DNA of 45,917 nucleotides from a phage (GCA_014750165.1 GCA_014750165.1_4319.1); one strand, 5' to 3'. Shown: positions 6,272 to 35,372, counted from the first letter of the stretch. Notes: generated from the sequence alone by a model not told the origin. Translations and numbers: made by a program.

Positions 6272-6622
6272 ATGGCTATTGATACTTTTAAATGGTGCAC
6301 TCAGATACAAAATGGAGGAGCCGCATTTTCCAACACGAACAATGTGCGAATCGTTAGCTTTGGTAATGGTTACGAGGCTAGAGGCACGGGAGGCTATCGC
6401 AGCAACAAGCGCAGCTACCAGATGACATACACTAACAAGGACTGGCGAGATGTGATGGATTTCTGCTTCAACCACATCATTACCCCGTTCTTCTGGACAA
6501 CTCCGCAGGGTGATACATCAATGTTTGTGATTCAACAGGATAGTATTAGCGTGACACCAGTCAGTAAGGAAGTTCAGACTGTAAACATGCAATTCGTGGA
6601 AGTATTTAGCTCAATGCGTTAA
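6272..6622 (+). CDS. minor tail protein (lambda M-like), putative
   Basis: In-frame part of track ORF 6245..6622 from ATG 6272 (AGGA-N5-ATG); track N-extension would translate a GC hairpin; position after tape measure. Confidence 0.5.
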   Translation: MAIDTFKWCTQIQNGGAAFSNTNNVRIVSFGNGYEARGTGGYRSNKRSYQMTYTNKDWRDVMDFCFNHIITPFFWTTPQGDTSMFVIQQDSISVTPVSKEVQTVNMQFVEVFSSMR

Positions 6623-6624
6623 AC

Positions 6625-6648
6625 TAGGCCCCATTAGGGGCTTTTTTA
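6625..6648 (+). terminator. rho-independent terminator
   Basis: GCCCC-ATTA-GGGGC hairpin followed by T6 run; same terminator-RBS module recurs before portal gene. Confidence 0.5.
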
Positions 6649-6660
6649 TTGGAGAAAATC

Positions 6661-7416
6661 ATGTTAAGTCCAAAGTTTGAAAATCAGTTGCAAAGTCTTT
6701 TCCCAGGCGAGATTGTGACTCTAATCCAGGTTGACGGAACCTCCTTTGGCTCTCTCGTTTATTCGTTCCATAATGAGAACATTTCATACACGCCAGAAGA
6801 GATCATGCTTGCCCAAATGAATGGCGAGCCACTGCCAGAGAAAACGATTACATTCCGTGGTGAAGAGTACGGCCCAAGACCTTTCGGCATCTCTGGCATC
6901 AATATGACTTCTGATGGCAAGGCAAACAAAGTTACGCTAACTGTATCAAACGTAGACCAGAGGATTAGCGCCTTGATTCGAACATACAACGGACTTGTTA
7001 AAGCTAAGGTTACCATATGGATTACTACGCGAGATAACATCAATGAAGACGGGAGTATTGCTGATGGAGATTATCGCAAATTCGTTTACTTCATTGAGCG
7101 ACCTAAGCAGGTTGATTACAAAACTGCGTCATTTGAGCTTAGTAGCCCGATGGATATGGATGGCATTTACATACCCGCACGGCTTGTTCAGTCTGTTTGT
7201 TATTGGGCGTCAAGGGGTTGGTATCGTAGCGGTAATGGATGCGACTACGCTGGTAATCGTTATTTTGACAAAGACGACAACCCGGTCAGTGACCCTTCTC
7301 TAGATTTCTGTGCGGGCACTGTTAACAGTTGCAAGATTAGATTCGGCGAGAATAATCAGCTTTCATTTGGTGGATGCGCAGCAGCAAGCCTTCAAGCCAA
7401 AGCGAATCAATCATAG
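6661..7416 (+). CDS. minor tail protein (lambda L-like)
   Basis: ATG 6661 after GGAGAAAATC; C-terminal Cys cluster (CYWASRGW...CDYAG...CAGTVNSC...FGGC) typical of L-like tail tip proteins; track start 6649 is a TTG inside the RBS. Confidence 0.6.
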   Translation: MLSPKFENQLQSLFPGEIVTLIQVDGTSFGSLVYSFHNENISYTPEEIMLAQMNGEPLPEKTITFRGEEYGPRPFGISGINMTSDGKANKVTLTVSNVDQRISALIRTYNGLVKAKVTIWITTRDNINEDGSIADGDYRKFVYFIERPKQVDYKTASFELSSPMDMDGIYIPARLVQSVCYWASRGWYRSGNGCDYAGNRYFDKDDNPVSDPSLDFCAGTVNSCKIRFGENNQLSFGGCAAASLQAKANQS

Positions 7417-7482: not shown

Positions 7483-7968
7483 ATGAACTGGAATGAAATT
7501 TTCGAATACAGAGATGGCAAGATTTATTGGAAAGTTAGCCCTGGCAGGAGGGCTAAGGTTGGTTCGGAAGCTGGATCAAATCAAATAAAAGGGTATAGAT
7601 TTGTGAAATTTCACGGAGTTTTATATATGACACACAGGGTTATTTGGGAGATGCATAACTGTGAAATACCGCATGGAATGGAGGTTGACCATTTAAATCA
7701 CATTAGGGACGATAACAGGATAGAGAATTTAAGAGTTGTTACAAAGTCAATTAATCAGAGGAATGCATCTAAAAGAATTGATAATAAAAGCGGTTTTACA
7801 GGCGTTTCTTGGTATCCCAAATATTCAAAGTGGAATGCTTACGCGACAGTAAATTCCAAGAGGTTTAATCTTGGTTACTTTGAATCAAAGCAAGATGCCT
7901 ATGTGGCTGTTAAAAAATTTAGGTCCATAAATGATTTTCATAAAAACCATGGAGTTGATTTATGTTAA
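7483..7968 (+). CDS. HNH homing endonuclease
   Basis: MNWNEIFEYRDGKIYWK...; HNH core EVDHLNHIRDDNRIENLR; ATG 7483 after GGAGA; paralogous to 27993..28485 and 34044..34535. Confidence 0.8.
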   Translation: MNWNEIFEYRDGKIYWKVSPGRRAKVGSEAGSNQIKGYRFVKFHGVLYMTHRVIWEMHNCEIPHGMEVDHLNHIRDDNRIENLRVVTKSINQRNASKRIDNKSGFTGVSWYPKYSKWNAYATVNSKRFNLGYFESKQDAYVAVKKFRSINDFHKNHGVDLC

Positions 7969-15453: not shown

Positions 15454-15548
15454 TTTAATCTCTCTATATGTTTTGACTTCGAAAATTTCGTATTCAAGCA
15501 GCACCATTGCCGCCATGAGCCTAAATATACCCAAAGATACCCAGTTGT

Positions 15549-15570
15549 CTTTAGCAAATCGTGCTATTTA
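15549..15570 (-). promoter_or_regulatory. gene-boundary palindrome cassette, variant (minus orientation)
   Basis: Reverse complement AAATAGCACGATTTGCTAAAG, 22 nt upstream of TATATT; upstream of Rha gene. Confidence 0.4.
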
Positions 15571-15664
15571 TAGCCAATTTCACCATAAATCACGGTTACA
15601 CGTAACCGATGTAACTCGATGTATACAATCTCATCCGCGGAAAATGATATACGCGCTGTTACGC

Positions 15665-15935
15665 CAATTTACGCAACAGTTACATTAAAATATCTATATA
15701 TATCAACCTTTTACTCTTATTATTATTATTATATATATTACTGTGTATATCATGTAACTACTTCTATAGAGTGTTCCGGTTATAATTTTAATATCATGTG
15801 ATTTTATACAGTATTGCACGGCAGCTATACCAATGCACCATCAGCAATAAATGATATACACGATATACACGCCGGTTACATTGAGCTATAGCTGGGCTTA
15901 GATGCCAAAAAACGTAACTAATGGCAATACCTACA
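15665..15935. repeat. AT-rich intergenic repeat copy A with (TTA)n tract
   Basis: Left arm ~95 bp and right arm ~50 bp closely similar by eye to 35041..35295; contains TTATTATTATTATTATATATATTACTGTGTATATCATGTAAC; strand-switch region. Confidence 0.6.
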
Positions 15936-16252
15936 CGGAATTACAAGGATTCACGCGTAAACTTAAATCAACGATTGGCAAAACCAATTGGACTGGCTAC
16001 GGTGACGAATATATAGTTAACCCATCGAAAGCAAGCAACCAGAGAGATATAGAAATGGTAAAGAAGATAGATTTGTACTCAGCTCACACCGTAATACTGC
16101 CTAGCTATGCTCCGGTTTTTATTGGTGTAACTTACGAAATAGCTCTTAAATTATGCGAGTCATCATATGGTAAAGACTGGAAAAATAAATCAATTAGAAT
16201 AGAAAAGACAACTAAAGAGCATATCGAAATCATCGTGGGGTTGCAAAAATGA
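15902..16252 (+). CDS. hypothetical early protein
   Basis: First gene after repeat A; 116 aa; no recognisable motif. Confidence 0.4.
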   Translation: MPKNVTNGNTYTELQGFTRKLKSTIGKTNWTGYGDEYIVNPSKASNQRDIEMVKKIDLYSAHTVILPSYAPVFIGVTYEIALKLCESSYGKDWKNKSIRIEKTTKEHIEIIVGLQK

Positions 16253-16443
16253 CATACTACATTATCAAAGAGAAAAACAACGCACTGTTCGGCGACTGCT
16301 ACTTTGGTGGTCCGGCTGGGTACACAACAGATAAGAGCGAGGCTGACAGATTCGAGACGAAAGAAGAAGCCCGTGATGTACTGACCGGTTACTTCACTGA
16401 AGAAGATTTGAAGTCTGTTAAAGTGGTTAAGATCAAGGGGTGA
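16249..16443 (+). CDS. hypothetical early protein (acidic, 64 aa)
   Basis: ATGA-coupled to upstream gene. Confidence 0.4.
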   Translation: MTYYIIKEKNNALFGDCYFGGPAGYTTDKSEADRFETKEEARDVLTGYFTEEDLKSVKVVKIKG

Positions 16444-16446
16444 GTT

Positions 16447-17412
16447 ATGAGATTTAAGGTTTTTACTCGAGAGGAACTAAGCAACGAGGCTTACCACTCA
16501 GAGACTGAACACATCTCCGGCAGCTCACTTGTTGAGATTATCCAGGGCTCACCAGCTAAGTGGAAATTCAAACAACGTAACAATGATAGCAAGGCTCTTA
16601 AGTTTGGCACACTAAGCCACACGATGATTCTCGAGCAAGATGTATTCGACAAGGAGTATCTTCGAGCTACAGATCTTGATGCGATTGAAGGATTAATTAC
16701 AAGTCAGACCGGATTGGCCTCAGCACTTAAAAAAGTTGGTGTAGCTGGCACGTCCGGTAAGGGGTATAGCGAGCTAGTAGAGATGATGCATCGCTCTGGT
16801 GAGGATTGGCCTGTTAAGTGGCTAATTGAGCAGCAGGAGAGCGCTCAGGCGCTCGTGGAGGGTAAAGAGCTAGTTAGTGCAGCGGACTATGACAAAGTGG
16901 TAGCGATGCGTGAGGTTCTTTGCAACATTCCAGCATATGATGCAATCGTGAACAGCGAGACGGCGCAGAAAGAGCTATCAATCTTCGGTGAGATTCTAGG
17001 TGTTGGCGTTAAGATTCGAATCGACCATGTTGATGTTGTTGATGGAGTCGTTCGGATCACAGATTATAAAACTACCGCAGACGCTAGCCCGGAAGGATTT
17101 GGTAAGTCGGCTTTTAATCACGGATACCTTGCAAAAATGGCGCTTCAGCGCGACCTGTTTGTGAAGGCATTCAACGAGAAGAGAAAGGTTATTGTAGGAT
17201 TGCTGGCGCAGGAGAAGGTAGAGCCATATTTACCAATGCTGTACACCTTGACGGACGAACAGCTACGAATTGGTCGTCTCCAGTATCTTGAGGCGCTCGC
17301 CACTTACAAGAAGTGCAAGGAGCTAGATATCTGGCCTGGATATTCGAACGGCATTACAGAGCAAGAATTGATGATTCCTGAGTGGGCGTTAAAACAATAT
17401 AAAGAAATCTAA
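16447..17412 (+). CDS. recombination exonuclease, PD-(D/E)xK family
   Basis: IRIDHVD...ITDYKT matches D...(D/E)xK nuclease core; located upstream of ERF and SSB genes. Confidence 0.55.
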   Translation: MRFKVFTREELSNEAYHSETEHISGSSLVEIIQGSPAKWKFKQRNNDSKALKFGTLSHTMILEQDVFDKEYLRATDLDAIEGLITSQTGLASALKKVGVAGTSGKGYSELVEMMHRSGEDWPVKWLIEQQESAQALVEGKELVSAADYDKVVAMREVLCNIPAYDAIVNSETAQKELSIFGEILGVGVKIRIDHVDVVDGVVRITDYKTTADASPEGFGKSAFNHGYLAKMALQRDLFVKAFNEKRKVIVGLLAQEKVEPYLPMLYTLTDEQLRIGRLQYLEALATYKKCKELDIWPGYSNGITEQELMIPEWALKQYKEI

Positions 17413-17430
17413 ATAGCACGAATTGCCAAA
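17411..17430 (+). promoter_or_regulatory. gene-boundary palindrome cassette
   Basis: AAATAGCACGAATTGCCAAA, GGGAT..ATCCC hairpin around TATAGT; precedes ERF gene. Confidence 0.5.
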
Positions 17431-17485
17431 ACAAAGCGGGATGACTTAGGTATAGTTATCCCATCAACAACGAACGAGGTTAAAG

Positions 17486-18136
17486 ATGCAAATTTCAGAA
17501 TCATGCAAATCAATTTTAAACGCGCTTCACACCGCTAAATCGCTATTTGCTAAGGCTGAGAAGTCTAAGCAGAACTCACACTTAAAGAACAAGTACGCCA
17601 CCTTAGAAGACGTGCTAGCGGCCGTTGAGCCAGGCTTAGATGAGTGTGGCTTGGTTATGTTCCAGAGCGTGCTTGATGATGAACAAACCAACCGTATGAA
17701 GGTTGAGACAAAACTGTTTCATGCTGAATCTGGAGAGTGGGTTAGCTTCTTGATGATAGTCCCAATCAGTAAGAATGATGCTCAAGGTTACGGATCTGCG
17801 CTTACATACGCTCGTCGCTACGGAATCACAGCAGCCTTAGGCCTTAGCCAGGCAGATGATGATGGCAATCTGGCAGCCAAGGGTGTTAAAGACTTTAAGC
17901 GAGAACTTGAGAAGTGTAATACGCTCGATGAGCTTCGTAACGTTTGGAAGGATGCTAAGCAATCACTTGATGCGGCAGGATGGAAGGTTTTCGAGCCTCA
18001 TATTATCGAGCGAAAAGCAGAGATTGAAGCAAACGCAGCAACTGGCTTCAACCCAGCAACACCAAAGAGAGTCGCAGAAAAAAGTAGTCCTGAAGAAAAG
18101 ATTGAAGTAGAATCACAACAAATCGACACATTCTAA
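17486..18136 (+). CDS. ERF-family single-strand annealing protein
   Basis: NKYATLEDVLAAVEP and TYARRYGITAALGL motifs resemble P22 Erf; between exonuclease and SSB. Confidence 0.8.
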   Translation: MQISESCKSILNALHTAKSLFAKAEKSKQNSHLKNKYATLEDVLAAVEPGLDECGLVMFQSVLDDEQTNRMKVETKLFHAESGEWVSFLMIVPISKNDAQGYGSALTYARRYGITAALGLSQADDDGNLAAKGVKDFKRELEKCNTLDELRNVWKDAKQSLDAAGWKVFEPHIIERKAEIEANAATGFNPATPKRVAEKSSPEEKIEVESQQIDTF

Positions 18137-18176: not shown

Positions 18177-18608
18177 ATGCACGTAATTACTGGTCAGATT
18201 CGCCGCGCTCCGTTCACCAAAGAAGGTCAAAACGCTAATGGTACATGGAAAATGTTTGCGGTTGATTTGAGTGAGCGATACAAGGATAAAGATGGGCAGA
18301 CTCAGTATAGTAACTATCGCGCCGTCTTCTTCGCCAAAGAGTCCATGTTAGATTGGTATAATGAAGCATTTCAAGAGGGTAAGGTTATTAGCGTTAGTGC
18401 TGAAACATTGGCTGTAGATGTTAGGGATAAAGATGGTAAGACTTACGTTACTGTCAATATGAACAATCCTCGACTTGAATTTAGTCAGCGTGGTGATTCA
18501 GCAACACAACAGACACAGCAAAATCAACATCAGCCAAAACAGCAGCAACAGCAGAATCAACGACAACCACAGCAGCAAAGTCAATTCAACGATGACATCC
18601 CATTCTGA
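18177..18608 (+). CDS. single-stranded DNA-binding protein
   Basis: Gln-rich linker and C-terminal acidic tip ...FNDDIPF characteristic of bacterial/phage SSB. Confidence 0.85.
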   Translation: MHVITGQIRRAPFTKEGQNANGTWKMFAVDLSERYKDKDGQTQYSNYRAVFFAKESMLDWYNEAFQEGKVISVSAETLAVDVRDKDGKTYVTVNMNNPRLEFSQRGDSATQQTQQNQHQPKQQQQQNQRQPQQQSQFNDDIPF

Positions 18609-18616
18609 TAAAAGAT

Positions 18617-18640
18617 AAAGCCCCTTTCGGGGCTTTTTTG
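18617..18640. terminator. rho-independent terminator between convergent genes
   Basis: AGCCCC-TTTC-GGGGCT hairpin plus T6; abuts tailspike stop. Confidence 0.6.
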
Positions 18641-25660: not shown

Positions 25661-25855
25661 ATGGCTACTATCTACACTGGTAAATTCTACGAATCACGCA
25701 AAACCGGTTACGAATATGAATTAGTAATCACCCCTGATGGTTATGTTCTTGACGATGGAGATGGTTACGCATTTGATGTTAGCCCAACTTACAAAGATGA
25801 TTTAGAAACTGTTAAAAACGCATTTGGCGAAAAATTTGACGAGGTATCAGAATAA
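25661..25855 (+). CDS. hypothetical protein
   Basis: Internal start MATIYTGKFY after GAGAGA; track start 25613 overlaps cassette. Confidence 0.4.
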   Translation: MATIYTGKFYESRKTGYEYELVITPDGYVLDDGDGYAFDVSPTYKDDLETVKNAFGEKFDEVSE

Positions 25856-27992: not shown

Positions 27993-28485
27993 ATGAATTG
28001 GCATGATTTTTTTATACTATAAGGATGGAAAGGTTTTCTGGAGAGATCCGCACTGCACGAGATTGAAGCCAGGTGATGAGGCTGGTAGTAGGCACCATAG
28101 GGGTTATTGGTATATTCGTAGATATGACAAAACAATGTCAAGGCACCGAATCGTATGGGAGATGCACAACGGAACAATACCAGACGGTATGGAGATAGAT
28201 CATATAAATCACGTGCCTGGTGATGACAGAATTGAAAACCTAAGAATGGTCACAAGAAGGCAAAACAATCAAAACAAAAAATTAAATGAAAGAAATACAA
28301 GCGGACACGTCGGGGTTAGCTGGAACAAGAAGACAAACAAATGGAGAGCAATGATAGGCATAAGGGGAGAGGACGGAAAGAGGAAAACTTTATACGTTTA
28401 TTATGGTGATTCTTTCGATGATGCGGTATCAGCAAGAAAGAAAGCAGAGGCTGAGCACTCGTTTCATGAAAATCACGGTAAATAG
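27993..28485 (+). CDS. HNH homing endonuclease, interrupted by frameshift at T7 tract
   Basis: ATG 27993 with strong RBS (AGGGGGA) encodes MNWHDFF then stops; HNH body (track 28003..28485) is in +1 frame; an 8th T would restore MNWHDFFLYYKDGKVFW, matching the paralog N-terminus MNWNEIFEYRDGKIYWK. Confidence 0.7.
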
Positions 28486-34043: not shown

Positions 34044-34535
34044 CTACCTCATTCCGCTGTTCTTGTGGTATTTCGCATTAACCTCAGCAACAATCCTCGC
34101 CTCGCAAGCACAGATAAAGTCTATGAATGTTCCTAAACATACAATTTTCCCATCTATGCTAATTCTTGCCGACCACTTACCTCTAACATCCATGTTCACA
34201 CCAGTTACCCCTGGCTTTCTTCTTACATACCTTTTGAGATTCTTATGATTTTCCATGTGGCTAACTAGCCTTAAGTTTTCAATCCTATTATCAGACCTAT
34301 CTCCATTAATGTGGTCGATCTGCATTCCTTTTGGTATATCTCCGTTGTGAATAATCCAGACCGCTCGATGGCAATAAATTAGCTTATTCTTAACCCTAAA
34401 TGCCTTGTATCCATGGCTATGCATGCAGCCAGCCTCGTCACCAACTTTTACTTGGGATGAGTTATACTTTCTGTAAAGTTTCCCATCCTTATACTCTACG
34501 GCGTTTACAATATCCTCAACTAGAATGGCACACAT
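34044..34535 (-). CDS. HNH homing endonuclease
   Basis: HNH core QIDHINGDRSDNRIENLR; paralog of 7483 and 27993 genes. Confidence 0.8.
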   Translation of the reverse strand: MCAILVEDIVNAVEYKDGKLYRKYNSSQVKVGDEAGCMHSHGYKAFRVKNKLIYCHRAVWIIHNGDIPKGMQIDHINGDRSDNRIENLRLVSHMENHKNLKRYVRRKPGVTGVNMDVRGKWSARISIDGKIVCLGTFIDFICACEARIVAEVNAKYHKNSGMR

Positions 34536-34770: not shown

Positions 34771-35040
34771 TTAGATTTATTGATTGTTGCATATATTGCA
34801 ATGATTATCATGACTATTGCACATATGGCAATATTGCTTCAGATGCAATGATGTTTTTGATTGTTGCGAAAAGTGAAATGAAGTGGTGAGTGAGTGAATG
34901 AAAGATGGATGGACTACCATACAAGTTGATTTTTATTCTTGCTGAGCCATTTTCACGCATACGCGTTATAAAAGTTATGCCTTGTGGATGATGCCACCCT
35001 CCGCAGTAATCGTGCACGCCTATAACGCTGAATTACGCAA

Positions 35041-35295
35041 TGGTTACACTATAATATCTATATATAACAACCATTTAGTATAATTATTATTATTATATAT
35101 ATTACTATGTATATCATGTAACCACGCATCCGGCGGGGGTCGATAGTTTTTCTATGAAAATGACATTTTCTATATATATAAGGATAGGCATATACCCTCC
35201 CCGATTTCCGCGGAAATCCATACACAGGCAAATTACATACGCTATAGCTGGGCTGAGGTAGCAAAAAGCGTAACCGGGGCCAATATAAACACGAA
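35041..35295. repeat. AT-rich intergenic repeat copy B with (TTA)n tract and relic gene start
   Basis: Arms match 15665..15935; right arm retains an ATG-less in-frame relic (GTAGCAAAAAGCGTAACCGGGGCCAATATAAAC) of the 15902 gene start. Confidence 0.6.
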
Positions 35296-35372
35296 ATAAC
35301 ACTTGATAACGTGTATATGTGTGTTATTATGGATTCATCTTAACGAAGGGCAACCAATCAGGAGTAATGAAT

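Follow-up and report, generated by a model that had tools for sequence, protein, structure and literature searches.

What is encoded by the two short open reading frames (ORFs) that stand ahead of the recombination genes of a T1-like phage, and are their products, as the position might suggest, host-takeover or anti-restriction proteins? The window, by which we mean the whole stretch of DNA analyzed (45,917 nucleotides, about one genome), is a complete Rtp-like phage of the Drexlerviridae, subfamily Braunvirinae. A megablast search with positions 15500–16900 retrieved 128 phage records at 80–95% identity, all of them Rtp-like siphoviruses of the Drexlerviridae, Braunvirinae. Both ORFs reported in the first-pass annotation are present on the + strand, each beginning with ATG: ORF1 of 116 aa at 15902–16252 and ORF2 of 64 aa at 16249–16443, with an ATGA overlap. 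The coordinates were right, but the 116-aa ORF does not appear to be one gene, and its first 153 nt are probably regulatory. We are fairly confident that the locus as a whole is best explained by regulatory DNA at 15902–16054, a small gene (gene A) inserted at the start of ORF2, and a clade-specific ORF2 lying ahead of the exonuclease gene (exo).

The two ORFs had been said to precede recombination genes, and this is borne out, since they lie directly upstream of those for exonuclease VIII, Erf and SSB (Table 1). On the minus strand upstream of them are genes for a Rha/anti-repressor-like protein and a DNA methyltransferase. The stop codon of ORF2 lies 3 nt before the start codon of the exonuclease, and in the relatives the distance is normally 3–4 nt. 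With the ATGA overlap and the 3-nt gap, gene A, ORF2 and exo appear to make up one promoter-proximal unit, and we read gene A and ORF2 as promoter-proximal cistrons of the recombination-gene operon. Transcription would pass from a promoter-leader cassette (15974–16054) through the closely spaced cistrons of gene A, ORF2 and exo, and an internal promoter after exo would then serve erf and ssb as far as the terminator. At the site equivalent to this internal cassette a promoter is annotated in phage KP36.

Table 1. Features of the locus and of the related element elsewhere in the window.
Feature	Position	Strand	Basis
Upstream regulatory element	15656-15945	.	Direct repeats D5 and D16, pairwise alignment
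ORF1 5' 51 codons (N module), non-coding, apparently open by chance	15902-16054	+	Substitution pattern, broken frames, paralogue
Palindrome ATTGG-CAAAA-CCAAT (ATTGGCAAAACCAAT), abutting the -35	15974-15988	.	Read from the sequence
Predicted sigma-70-type promoter, TGGACT-17 nt-TATAGT	15989-16017	+	Consensus scan and conservation
Predicted transcribed leader: CATCGAAAGC box (16023-16032), ribosome-binding AGAGAGA (16041-16047)	16023-16047	+	Cassette alignment
Gene A, 65-aa basic protein, internal ATG at 16055	16055-16252	+	Insertion, homologues, third-position excess
ORF2, 64-aa mildly acidic protein, rtp46 C-terminal / PHROG 5247 family	16249-16443	+	Substitution pattern, homologues
Exonuclease VIII-like PD-(D/E)XK nuclease (DUF3799)	16447-17412	+	Pfam PF12684 E 5e-21; PHROG 412 E 2e-99
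Internal box-type promoter cassette, exo/Erf gap	17409-17465	+	Direct-repeat family, cassette alignment
Erf single-strand annealing protein	17486-18136	+	Pfam ERF E 9e-28; PHROG 155
SSB	18177-18608	+	PHROG 44
Bidirectional intrinsic terminator, operon end	18617-18636	.	Terminator scan: 8-bp stem, T-runs on both strands
Second, untranslated copy of the regulatory element, between another pair of divergent genes	35020-35301	.	Repeats and alignment

The division of ORF1 is seen most clearly in the pattern of substitution among 18 Braunvirinae. In ORF2 the differences fall at codon positions 1, 2 and 3 in numbers of 679, 466 and 3009 (16, 11 and 72%). The third-position excess, together with a preserved frame and the existence of protein homologues, marks ORF2 as what appears to be a genuine gene under strong purifying selection. 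The corresponding numbers for 15902–16054, codons 1–51 of ORF1, are 1727, 1761 and 1804 (33, 33 and 34%). This stretch, which we call the N module, has neither the third-position excess nor the preserved frame of protein-coding DNA. To judge from these sequence comparisons, the 116-aa ORF1 is a composite, in which a non-coding promoter and leader lie in frame with the 65-aa gene A.

At least 10 of 17 relatives have an in-frame stop codon, an indel or frameshift that is not a multiple of three, or no start codon within the frame of the N module. The stop is at codon 13 in DTL, UViG3300000290, AN_ECEAS and RobRod40 and at codon 16 in 2725-N35, and in IME253 and phiA2-1 it comes just ahead of the ATG. 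Indels of +1 are found in the 12210I group (the 43 records with DSM 12242 as host) and in ACG-M12, and of +2 in A110b and AN_ECEAS, the latter also having an N module without a start codon. A110b is the closest relative that bears gene A; there the frame of gene A extends upstream for just 12 codons with no alternative start, so that translation can begin only at the internal ATG. The 5′ part of the N module has a paralogue at 35241–35301 in untranslated DNA, and its 3′ part is orthologous to a 73-nt intergenic spacer of Rogue1. A search of Rfam with the N module gave no match, and alifold detected no conserved folding of the RNA on the + strand (z = −0.75); we therefore conclude that conservation acts at the DNA level.

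The stretch has been annotated variously among the relatives, where it is fused, split or left out. There is a single ORF of 132 aa in Rtp (rtp46) and of 143 aa in EC3a. IME253 has ORFs of 73 and 64 aa with a TAA between them, one codon before the ORF2 ATG, and JeanPiccard has 114 and 64 aa in the same arrangement as the window. Nothing is annotated upstream of ORF2 in AN_ECEAS and 2725-N35. In the family PHROG 35664 (143 positions) residues 1–56 of ORF1 correspond to positions 29–84 and ORF2 to positions 80–143 (E 2e-41). The match to the front of ORF1 and to the whole of ORF2 shows that some relatives annotate both as one protein; in the window there are two separate ORFs and no continuous protein spanning the family.

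The upstream frame is open in three of the four phages bearing gene A and in five of the 14 others, which is above the random expectation for a frame of 51 codons. Shared ancestry and conserved blocks that are free of stop codons can explain this surplus. An N-terminally extended product may occasionally be translated from transcripts that begin upstream. We also considered a conserved leader peptide at the front of ORF1, and rejected it on the flat codon-position pattern, the broken frames and the promoter-leader cassette that lies within.

The predicted sigma-70-type promoter in the N module has its −35 hexamer TGGACT at 15989–15994 and its −10 hexamer TATAGT at 16012–16017. Both are conserved among the relatives, and their separation falls within the 16–18 nt that we took to define such a promoter. 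The 17-nt spacer is constant in length and yet varies more in sequence than any other part of the region, with a divergence of 0.35 compared with 0.15 in the leader. Transcription is expected to start near 16024. A scan for the sigma-70 consensus did not by itself rise above chance (nine sites against 9.4 expected), and the assignment of the promoter therefore rests on comparative evidence.

Within the genome, the elements run in the order palindrome, −35, spacer, −10, CATCGAAAGC, AGAGAGA and ATG 16055, and there are at least 14 further promoter-leader-RBS cassettes whose start codons are in register with 16055. In these other cassettes a TAGCA-N5-TGCTA palindrome is placed ~22 nt from the −10, a position equivalent to that of the palindrome at 15974–15988. 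The latter is nearly invariant in Braunvirinae and Rogunavirinae and is a possible operator. The orthologous element in Rogunavirinae, seen in Rogue1, e4/1c and phiEB49, occupies the 73 non-coding nt that separate the anti-repressor gene from the homologue of ORF2; in Rogue1 it reads TTGATA-17-CATAGT and ends in the same AGAGAGATATAGAAATG. The orthologue in T1 reads TTGACT-16-TATAAT, followed by the leader CATCGTAAACGA / TCATCGTAAACGA, AGGAGA and the ATG of the exonuclease ST29, with no gene between. Unlike the other cassettes, that of gene A has a proper −35 at 17 nt from the −10, so that it may be of the early type read by host polymerase. Such a −35/−10 pair is compatible with early transcription by host RNA polymerase, a timing that we infer; a literature search found no transcription start maps or transcriptome for any Drexlerviridae phage.

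Upstream of the promoter, and overlapping the N module, is a regulatory element of about 300 bp that is probably the one called repeat A in the first-pass annotation. An AT-rich core (15689–15815) is flanked by GTAAC/GTTAC and GATATACACG motifs, which proved to be enriched. The core is almost invariant in the 18 Braunvirinae, and identity is ~81% in Rogunavirinae. The duplicated segments in the second copy are 15656–15761, which corresponds to 35020–35125, and 15885–15945, which corresponds to 35241–35301. The gene next after the second copy belongs to PHROG 4841 and starts at ~35367.

The origin of the remainder of ORF1 emerges from an alignment of the 560 nt upstream of ORF2 in 21 genomes. 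The window, A110b, JeanPiccard and TR2 have an extra segment of ~190 nt that is absent from the others in the alignment. In the window the insert is 194 nt relative to the Rtp-type phages, with an ATG at both ends: it follows immediately on the ATG with which ORF2 starts elsewhere, and it closes with the new ATG of ORF2. The inserted small gene starts at ATG 16055, and ORF1 therefore consists of the N module plus this gene. Gene A would have taken over the resident ribosome-binding site that was formerly that of ORF2, and ribosomes would pass to ORF2 by way of the ATGA stop/start overlap. A GTGGGG sequence resembling a Shine-Dalgarno element lies inside the 3′ end of gene A, ahead of the ORF2 ATG.

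Gene A was found by tblastn in ~11 of 50,697 phage records, distributed over four unrelated phage groups. These are Braunvirinae (A110b, JeanPiccard and TR2), other Drexlerviridae (Tlsvirus 011D2 and STSR3), one phage of the Autographiviridae (SDFMU_EhYP, where it is unannotated), and four Vequintavirinae-type myoviruses. In the myoviruses it is a standalone gene of 61–67 aa in arrays of small genes beside helicase or polymerase genes. The protein is 30–41% identical across the four groups and is intact wherever it is present, and in a ten-member alignment H11, L15, P16, P20, I23 and A30 are invariant. Comparison with TR2 gives 18, 13 and 36 differences at codon positions 1, 2 and 3. Gene A thus has the third-position excess, the frame and the protein homologues of a coding sequence; independent gene calls in other records give it 63 aa. 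We conclude that gene A is, on its patchy distribution and cassette-like insertion, apparently a rare and horizontally mobile accessory gene of the ‘moron’ type. Its family is uncatalogued, with members already deposited as ‘hypothetical’. Paralogy between gene A and ORF2 was considered and rejected (hhalign probability 1.6%), and a protein search with a joint alignment of the two returned long fused ORFs only, with no distant members.

ORF2 has a quite different distribution. It is present in 120 phage records, at 82–98% identity in Braunvirinae and 41–51% in Rogunavirinae, and it is confined to these two subfamilies, which together form one of two major clades of the Drexlerviridae (PMC8594841). 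Its 120 records come close to the 115, among 1362 with an exonuclease, in which that enzyme is >60% identical to the one in the window. When 1.84 billion representative proteins were searched with a profile, six matched. Three are genuine 50%-identity clusters, and the other three are low-complexity repeat proteins that we judged spurious.

In T1/Tunavirinae, Tempevirinae and Webervirus ORF2 is absent despite the same exo-Erf-SSB module, so the exonuclease can evidently do without it. In its place upstream of exo, T1, Tempevirinae and Webervirus have a stretch of ~440–530 nt, unannotated in T1 and KP36 and given three ORF calls of 35–36 aa in BubbaBully. Where ORF2 is present its junction with exo can be interrupted, by an HNH gene in DTL and Sf12, by a 65-aa gene in ACG-M12 and 2725-N35 and by a Rha-like gene in TR2. 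The coupling of ORF2 to exo is therefore usual and not obligatory.

No motif had been recognized in the first-pass annotation, and wider searches agree. Neither gene A nor the ORF2 of the window has a match in Pfam (E ≤ 10), PADLOC (E ≤ 1), NCBIfam (where there were only chance matches far below cutoff) or the sequences of the PDB. Gene A has none in PHROGs v4 either, and the PHROG families that do match are all of unknown function. Residues 1–63 of ORF2 align with positions 1–66 of the 67 in PHROG 5247 (E 3.3e-25), and its Rogue1 homologue matches this family with E 2e-34; that homologue also has a sub-threshold similarity to DUF2188 (17.8 bits against a cut-off of 22). The motif NNALFGDCYFGG of ORF2 is almost invariant.

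Structure prediction and fold search, proposed with the first-pass annotation as a check, served for one of the two proteins. The AF2 model of ORF2 (pLDDT 81.8) is a small alpha/beta protein comprising a beta-hairpin, a helix and a C-terminal strand, and in BFVD it resembles only uncharacterized small phage proteins. The model of gene A is unusable (pLDDT 49.8). The calculated pI is 9.1 for gene A (net charge +2.7) and 5.0 for ORF2 (net charge −2.5).

What might these two proteins do? That gene A modulates the host or counters a defence seems to us the likeliest of the possibilities, although we would place it somewhat below an even chance. For ORF2 we suggest, tentatively and as a possibility rather than a probability, an accessory role in exo/Erf recombination, for example by modulating the exonuclease, or RecBCD or another host nuclease. 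ORF2 is found throughout its clade, is strongly conserved and lies beside exo, so a recombination-linked role fits better than one in anti-restriction.

The suggestion made originally was that both act in host takeover or against restriction and are the first proteins made once the DNA has entered. The idea is purely positional, plausible for gene A and less so for ORF2, and for the two together we consider it unlikely. Clear homology to housekeeping proteins had been named as an observation that would refute it; none was found for gene A or ORF2, so it does not fall on that account. There is, on the other hand, no match for either protein to anti-restriction or anti-defence families, including the Pfam profiles of Ocr, ArdA, ArdB/KlcA and Gam. 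Neither has the strongly acidic surface of a DNA mimic, as their pI values and the modest charge of ORF2 indicate. A possible resemblance to AcrIC8 (PDB 8g9s) was not recovered by Foldseek or by sequence. ORF2, moreover, is not a variable gene: it is present across its clade, shows strong conservation and is associated with recombination genes. The T1 protein ST61, a reported trigger of DRT3, is encoded at a different locus (T1 6607–6816) and is unrelated to either gene A or ORF2.

A broader reading, to which we give little weight, is that gene A and/or ORF2 represent a new type of small effector, and that the ~300-bp element is an undescribed T1-like replication origin or operator cluster. 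Gene A would then be a mobile counter-defence gene or host modulator that passes from one virulent phage to another, unrelated one by precise insertion at start codons behind strong promoters, and ORF2, restricted to its clade, would regulate either the RecE-like exonuclease or the RecBCD of the host.

Gene A might also be a neutral or selfish passenger, kept by a highly expressed slot that tolerates insertions. Its great rarity would fit this, as would the evident viability of most Braunvirinae without it. Against it are the conservation of the protein sequence across four unrelated groups, in which certain H, LP, P, I and A residues never vary, the excess of third-position substitution and a frame that is always intact, and we regard this as rather improbable. 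We think it more doubtful still that ORF2 is a RecBCD inhibitor, an analogue of lambda Gam, T7 gp5.9 or P22 Abc2 that guards linear DNA or recombination intermediates. It may correspond in position to gam, gene 5.9 and abc as a small gene just upstream of an exonuclease/annealase module, it is mildly acidic, and it is inherited together with one clade of exonuclease; against this, it has no similarity of sequence or fold to Gam or to the solved inhibitors, its net charge is only −2.5, and other Drexlerviridae have the same module without it.

Finally, that ORF1 is a genuine 116-aa protein (as annotated for bas02_0027 of JeanPiccard and for an identical protein of an E. coli assembly, P0095), like the rtp46-type fusions of 115–143 aa, is very improbable: a frame begun by ATG or GTG is indeed open at the homologous position in eight of 18 genomes, and fused ORFs are recorded in database entries and PHROG 35664, but substitution is flat across codon positions, at least 10 of 17 relatives have the frame interrupted, by stops and frameshifts that differ in position, the promoter lies inside the ORF so that its transcripts lack the ATG at 15902, the homologous stretch is intergenic in Rogunavirinae, in T1 and in the 35-kb paralogue, and A110b cannot make the fusion.

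The reading that we prefer, of regulatory DNA followed by an inserted gene A and a clade-specific ORF2, thus amounts to a correction of annotation and a location for the operon promoter, and the functions of gene A and ORF2 are at most what we infer. The correct gene set here would be a 65-aa gene and a 64-aa gene. The upstream stretch, which counts as protein sequence in Rtp (rtp46), EC3a, the Piccard phages, the E. coli assembly and PHROG 35664, would be promoter and leader DNA. This affects screens of early proteins from Drexlerviridae, in which a ‘protein’ of 116 or 132 aa would be an artefact. The slot behind the operon promoter appears to be where T1-like phages collect accessory genes, so that gene A and the other inserts are reasonable candidates for counter-defence screens. 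ORF2 is compact, confidently modeled, clade-specific and linked to recombination, which makes it a tractable target for experiment. As phage genomes go the locus is ordinary, and nothing in it should surprise a phage specialist.

It is instructive to compare the locus with systems already described. The nearest is rtp46 of Rtp, whose C-terminal 64 residues are 95% identical to ORF2 and which occupies the same place directly upstream of exonuclease VIII; a literature search found no functional data on it. In rtp46 (132 aa) and the members of PHROG 35664 the ORF2-type part is annotated as fused to the upstream stretch, whereas in the window it is gene A that the upstream stretch runs into. Small genes are also found beside the exonuclease/annealase pairs of other phages, such as those for lambda Gam, T7 gp5.9, P22 Abc2 and Arf. 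ORF2 has a position like theirs, which is a positional analogy only; it differs in that no similarity of sequence or fold to them was found and in not being strongly acidic. Gene A resembles early accessory genes of the ‘moron’ type in being a self-contained small ORF, patchy in distribution among unrelated phages, that has been inserted behind a promoter and ahead of a conserved gene. It differs from them in having no promoter or terminator of its own, in reusing the resident ribosome-binding site and in being joined by microhomology at the start codon.

T1 itself provides the closest parallel to the control region. Upstream of its exonuclease gene it has a like design, with an AT-rich core and GTAAC/GTTAC motifs. 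Its exo promoter has the layout of the window cassette, with −35, −10, CATCG(T)AAACGA leader box, ribosome-binding site and ATG in turn, although the T1 hexamers TTGACT and TATAAT are nearer to consensus than TGGACT and TATAGT. T1 has no homologue of gene A or ORF2 (tblastn E > 2). Its cassette drives exo directly, while in the window gene A and ORF2 stand in between.

The slot that runs from the gene A promoter at 15989-16017 to exo, the exonuclease VIII gene beginning at 16447, is a hot spot for insertion among related phages. The comparison of this slot took in genomes L001, L012, L018, L023, L027 and DTL. The inserts comprise gene A itself, a 65-aa gene resembling ORF6 of BP-4795 in ACG-M12 and 2725-N35, HNH homing endonucleases in DTL and Sf12, and a Rha-like regulator in TR2. 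At the ORF1/ORF2 locus of Escherichia phage 2725-N35 (MN840485) gene A is absent and there is an extra gene after ORF2, and the N module, the promoter and leader DNA that precedes gene A, is 79% identical to that in the window. JeanPiccard carries a methyltransferase gene directly after exo.

A homologue of gene A occurs in the T7-like Enterobacter phage SDFMU_EhYP, where an unannotated 62-aa gene at 1448-1636 sits in the gap between the genes for an 'AAA family ATPase' and DNA polymerase. T1 ST61, which papers of 2026 report to trigger DRT3 defence, is unrelated to gene A and ORF2. It lies at T1 6607-6816, in a different early-gene region from the gene A/ORF2 locus, and only one weak match to it occurs in the window, near 25670 (40% across 30 residues, E = 0.009).

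The PHROG 35664 profile and several deposited proteins carry an N-terminal extension that is translated promoter and leader DNA. The GenBank entries concerned are rtp46, Ec3a_41, bas01_0034 and bas02_0027, and these annotations, together with that of PHROG 35664, are probably wrong. An identical copy of the 116-aa product of ORF1 has been deposited with a 45,947-bp contig that bears the label E. coli.

Promoter-leader cassettes are scattered over the window in at least 15 copies. Each is laid out in the order AATAGCACGAATTGCTAAA, a spacer of ~22 nt, TATAGTTA, CATCGAAACGA, GAGAGATAAAGAA and ATG, with the variable spacer often forming a GC-rich hairpin. The TAGCA-N5-TGCTA palindrome of these dispersed cassettes is too distant from the -10 for a normal -35 role, which suggests that they depend on a phage-encoded DNA-binding protein. 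The gene A cassette differs from the others, having the palindrome ATTGG-N5-CCAAT and a canonical -35.

Repeated and dispersed features of the window
Feature	Position	Remark
Promoter-leader cassettes	2338, 13997(-), 15522(-), 17409, 25287, 25578, 27917, 28479, 29567, 33597(-), 34698(-), 36829, 37963, 41137	and others
~300-bp element, first copy	15656-15945	divergent intergenic region
~300-bp element, second copy	35020-35301	divergent intergenic region
AT-rich core	15689-15815	
HNH-endonuclease-like segments	7645-7744, 28156-28255	paralogous, 71% identity over 100 nt
Third HNH endonuclease gene	34044-34535	adjoins second element copy

The two copies of the ~300-bp element share two blocks, of 85% and 75% identity. 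The AT-rich core is nearly invariant in 18 Braunvirinae, its conservation being far above that of the adjacent coding sequence, and the Rogunavirinae retain ~81% identity to it. Short motifs are enriched in 15590-15990. Allowing at most one mismatch, GATATACACG is present in four copies within 15646-15871, and eight are observed in the whole genome where 1.9 are expected. GTAAC/GTTAC reaches a density of up to 8 per 500 nt in 15590-15990, against an expected 1.3. The element may act as a replication origin or as a cluster of operators. Upstream of exo in T1 and KP36 lies an analogous AT-rich core accompanied by short repeats. The T1 region that corresponds to 15590-15990 contains TGTAAC(A/C)GG repeats.
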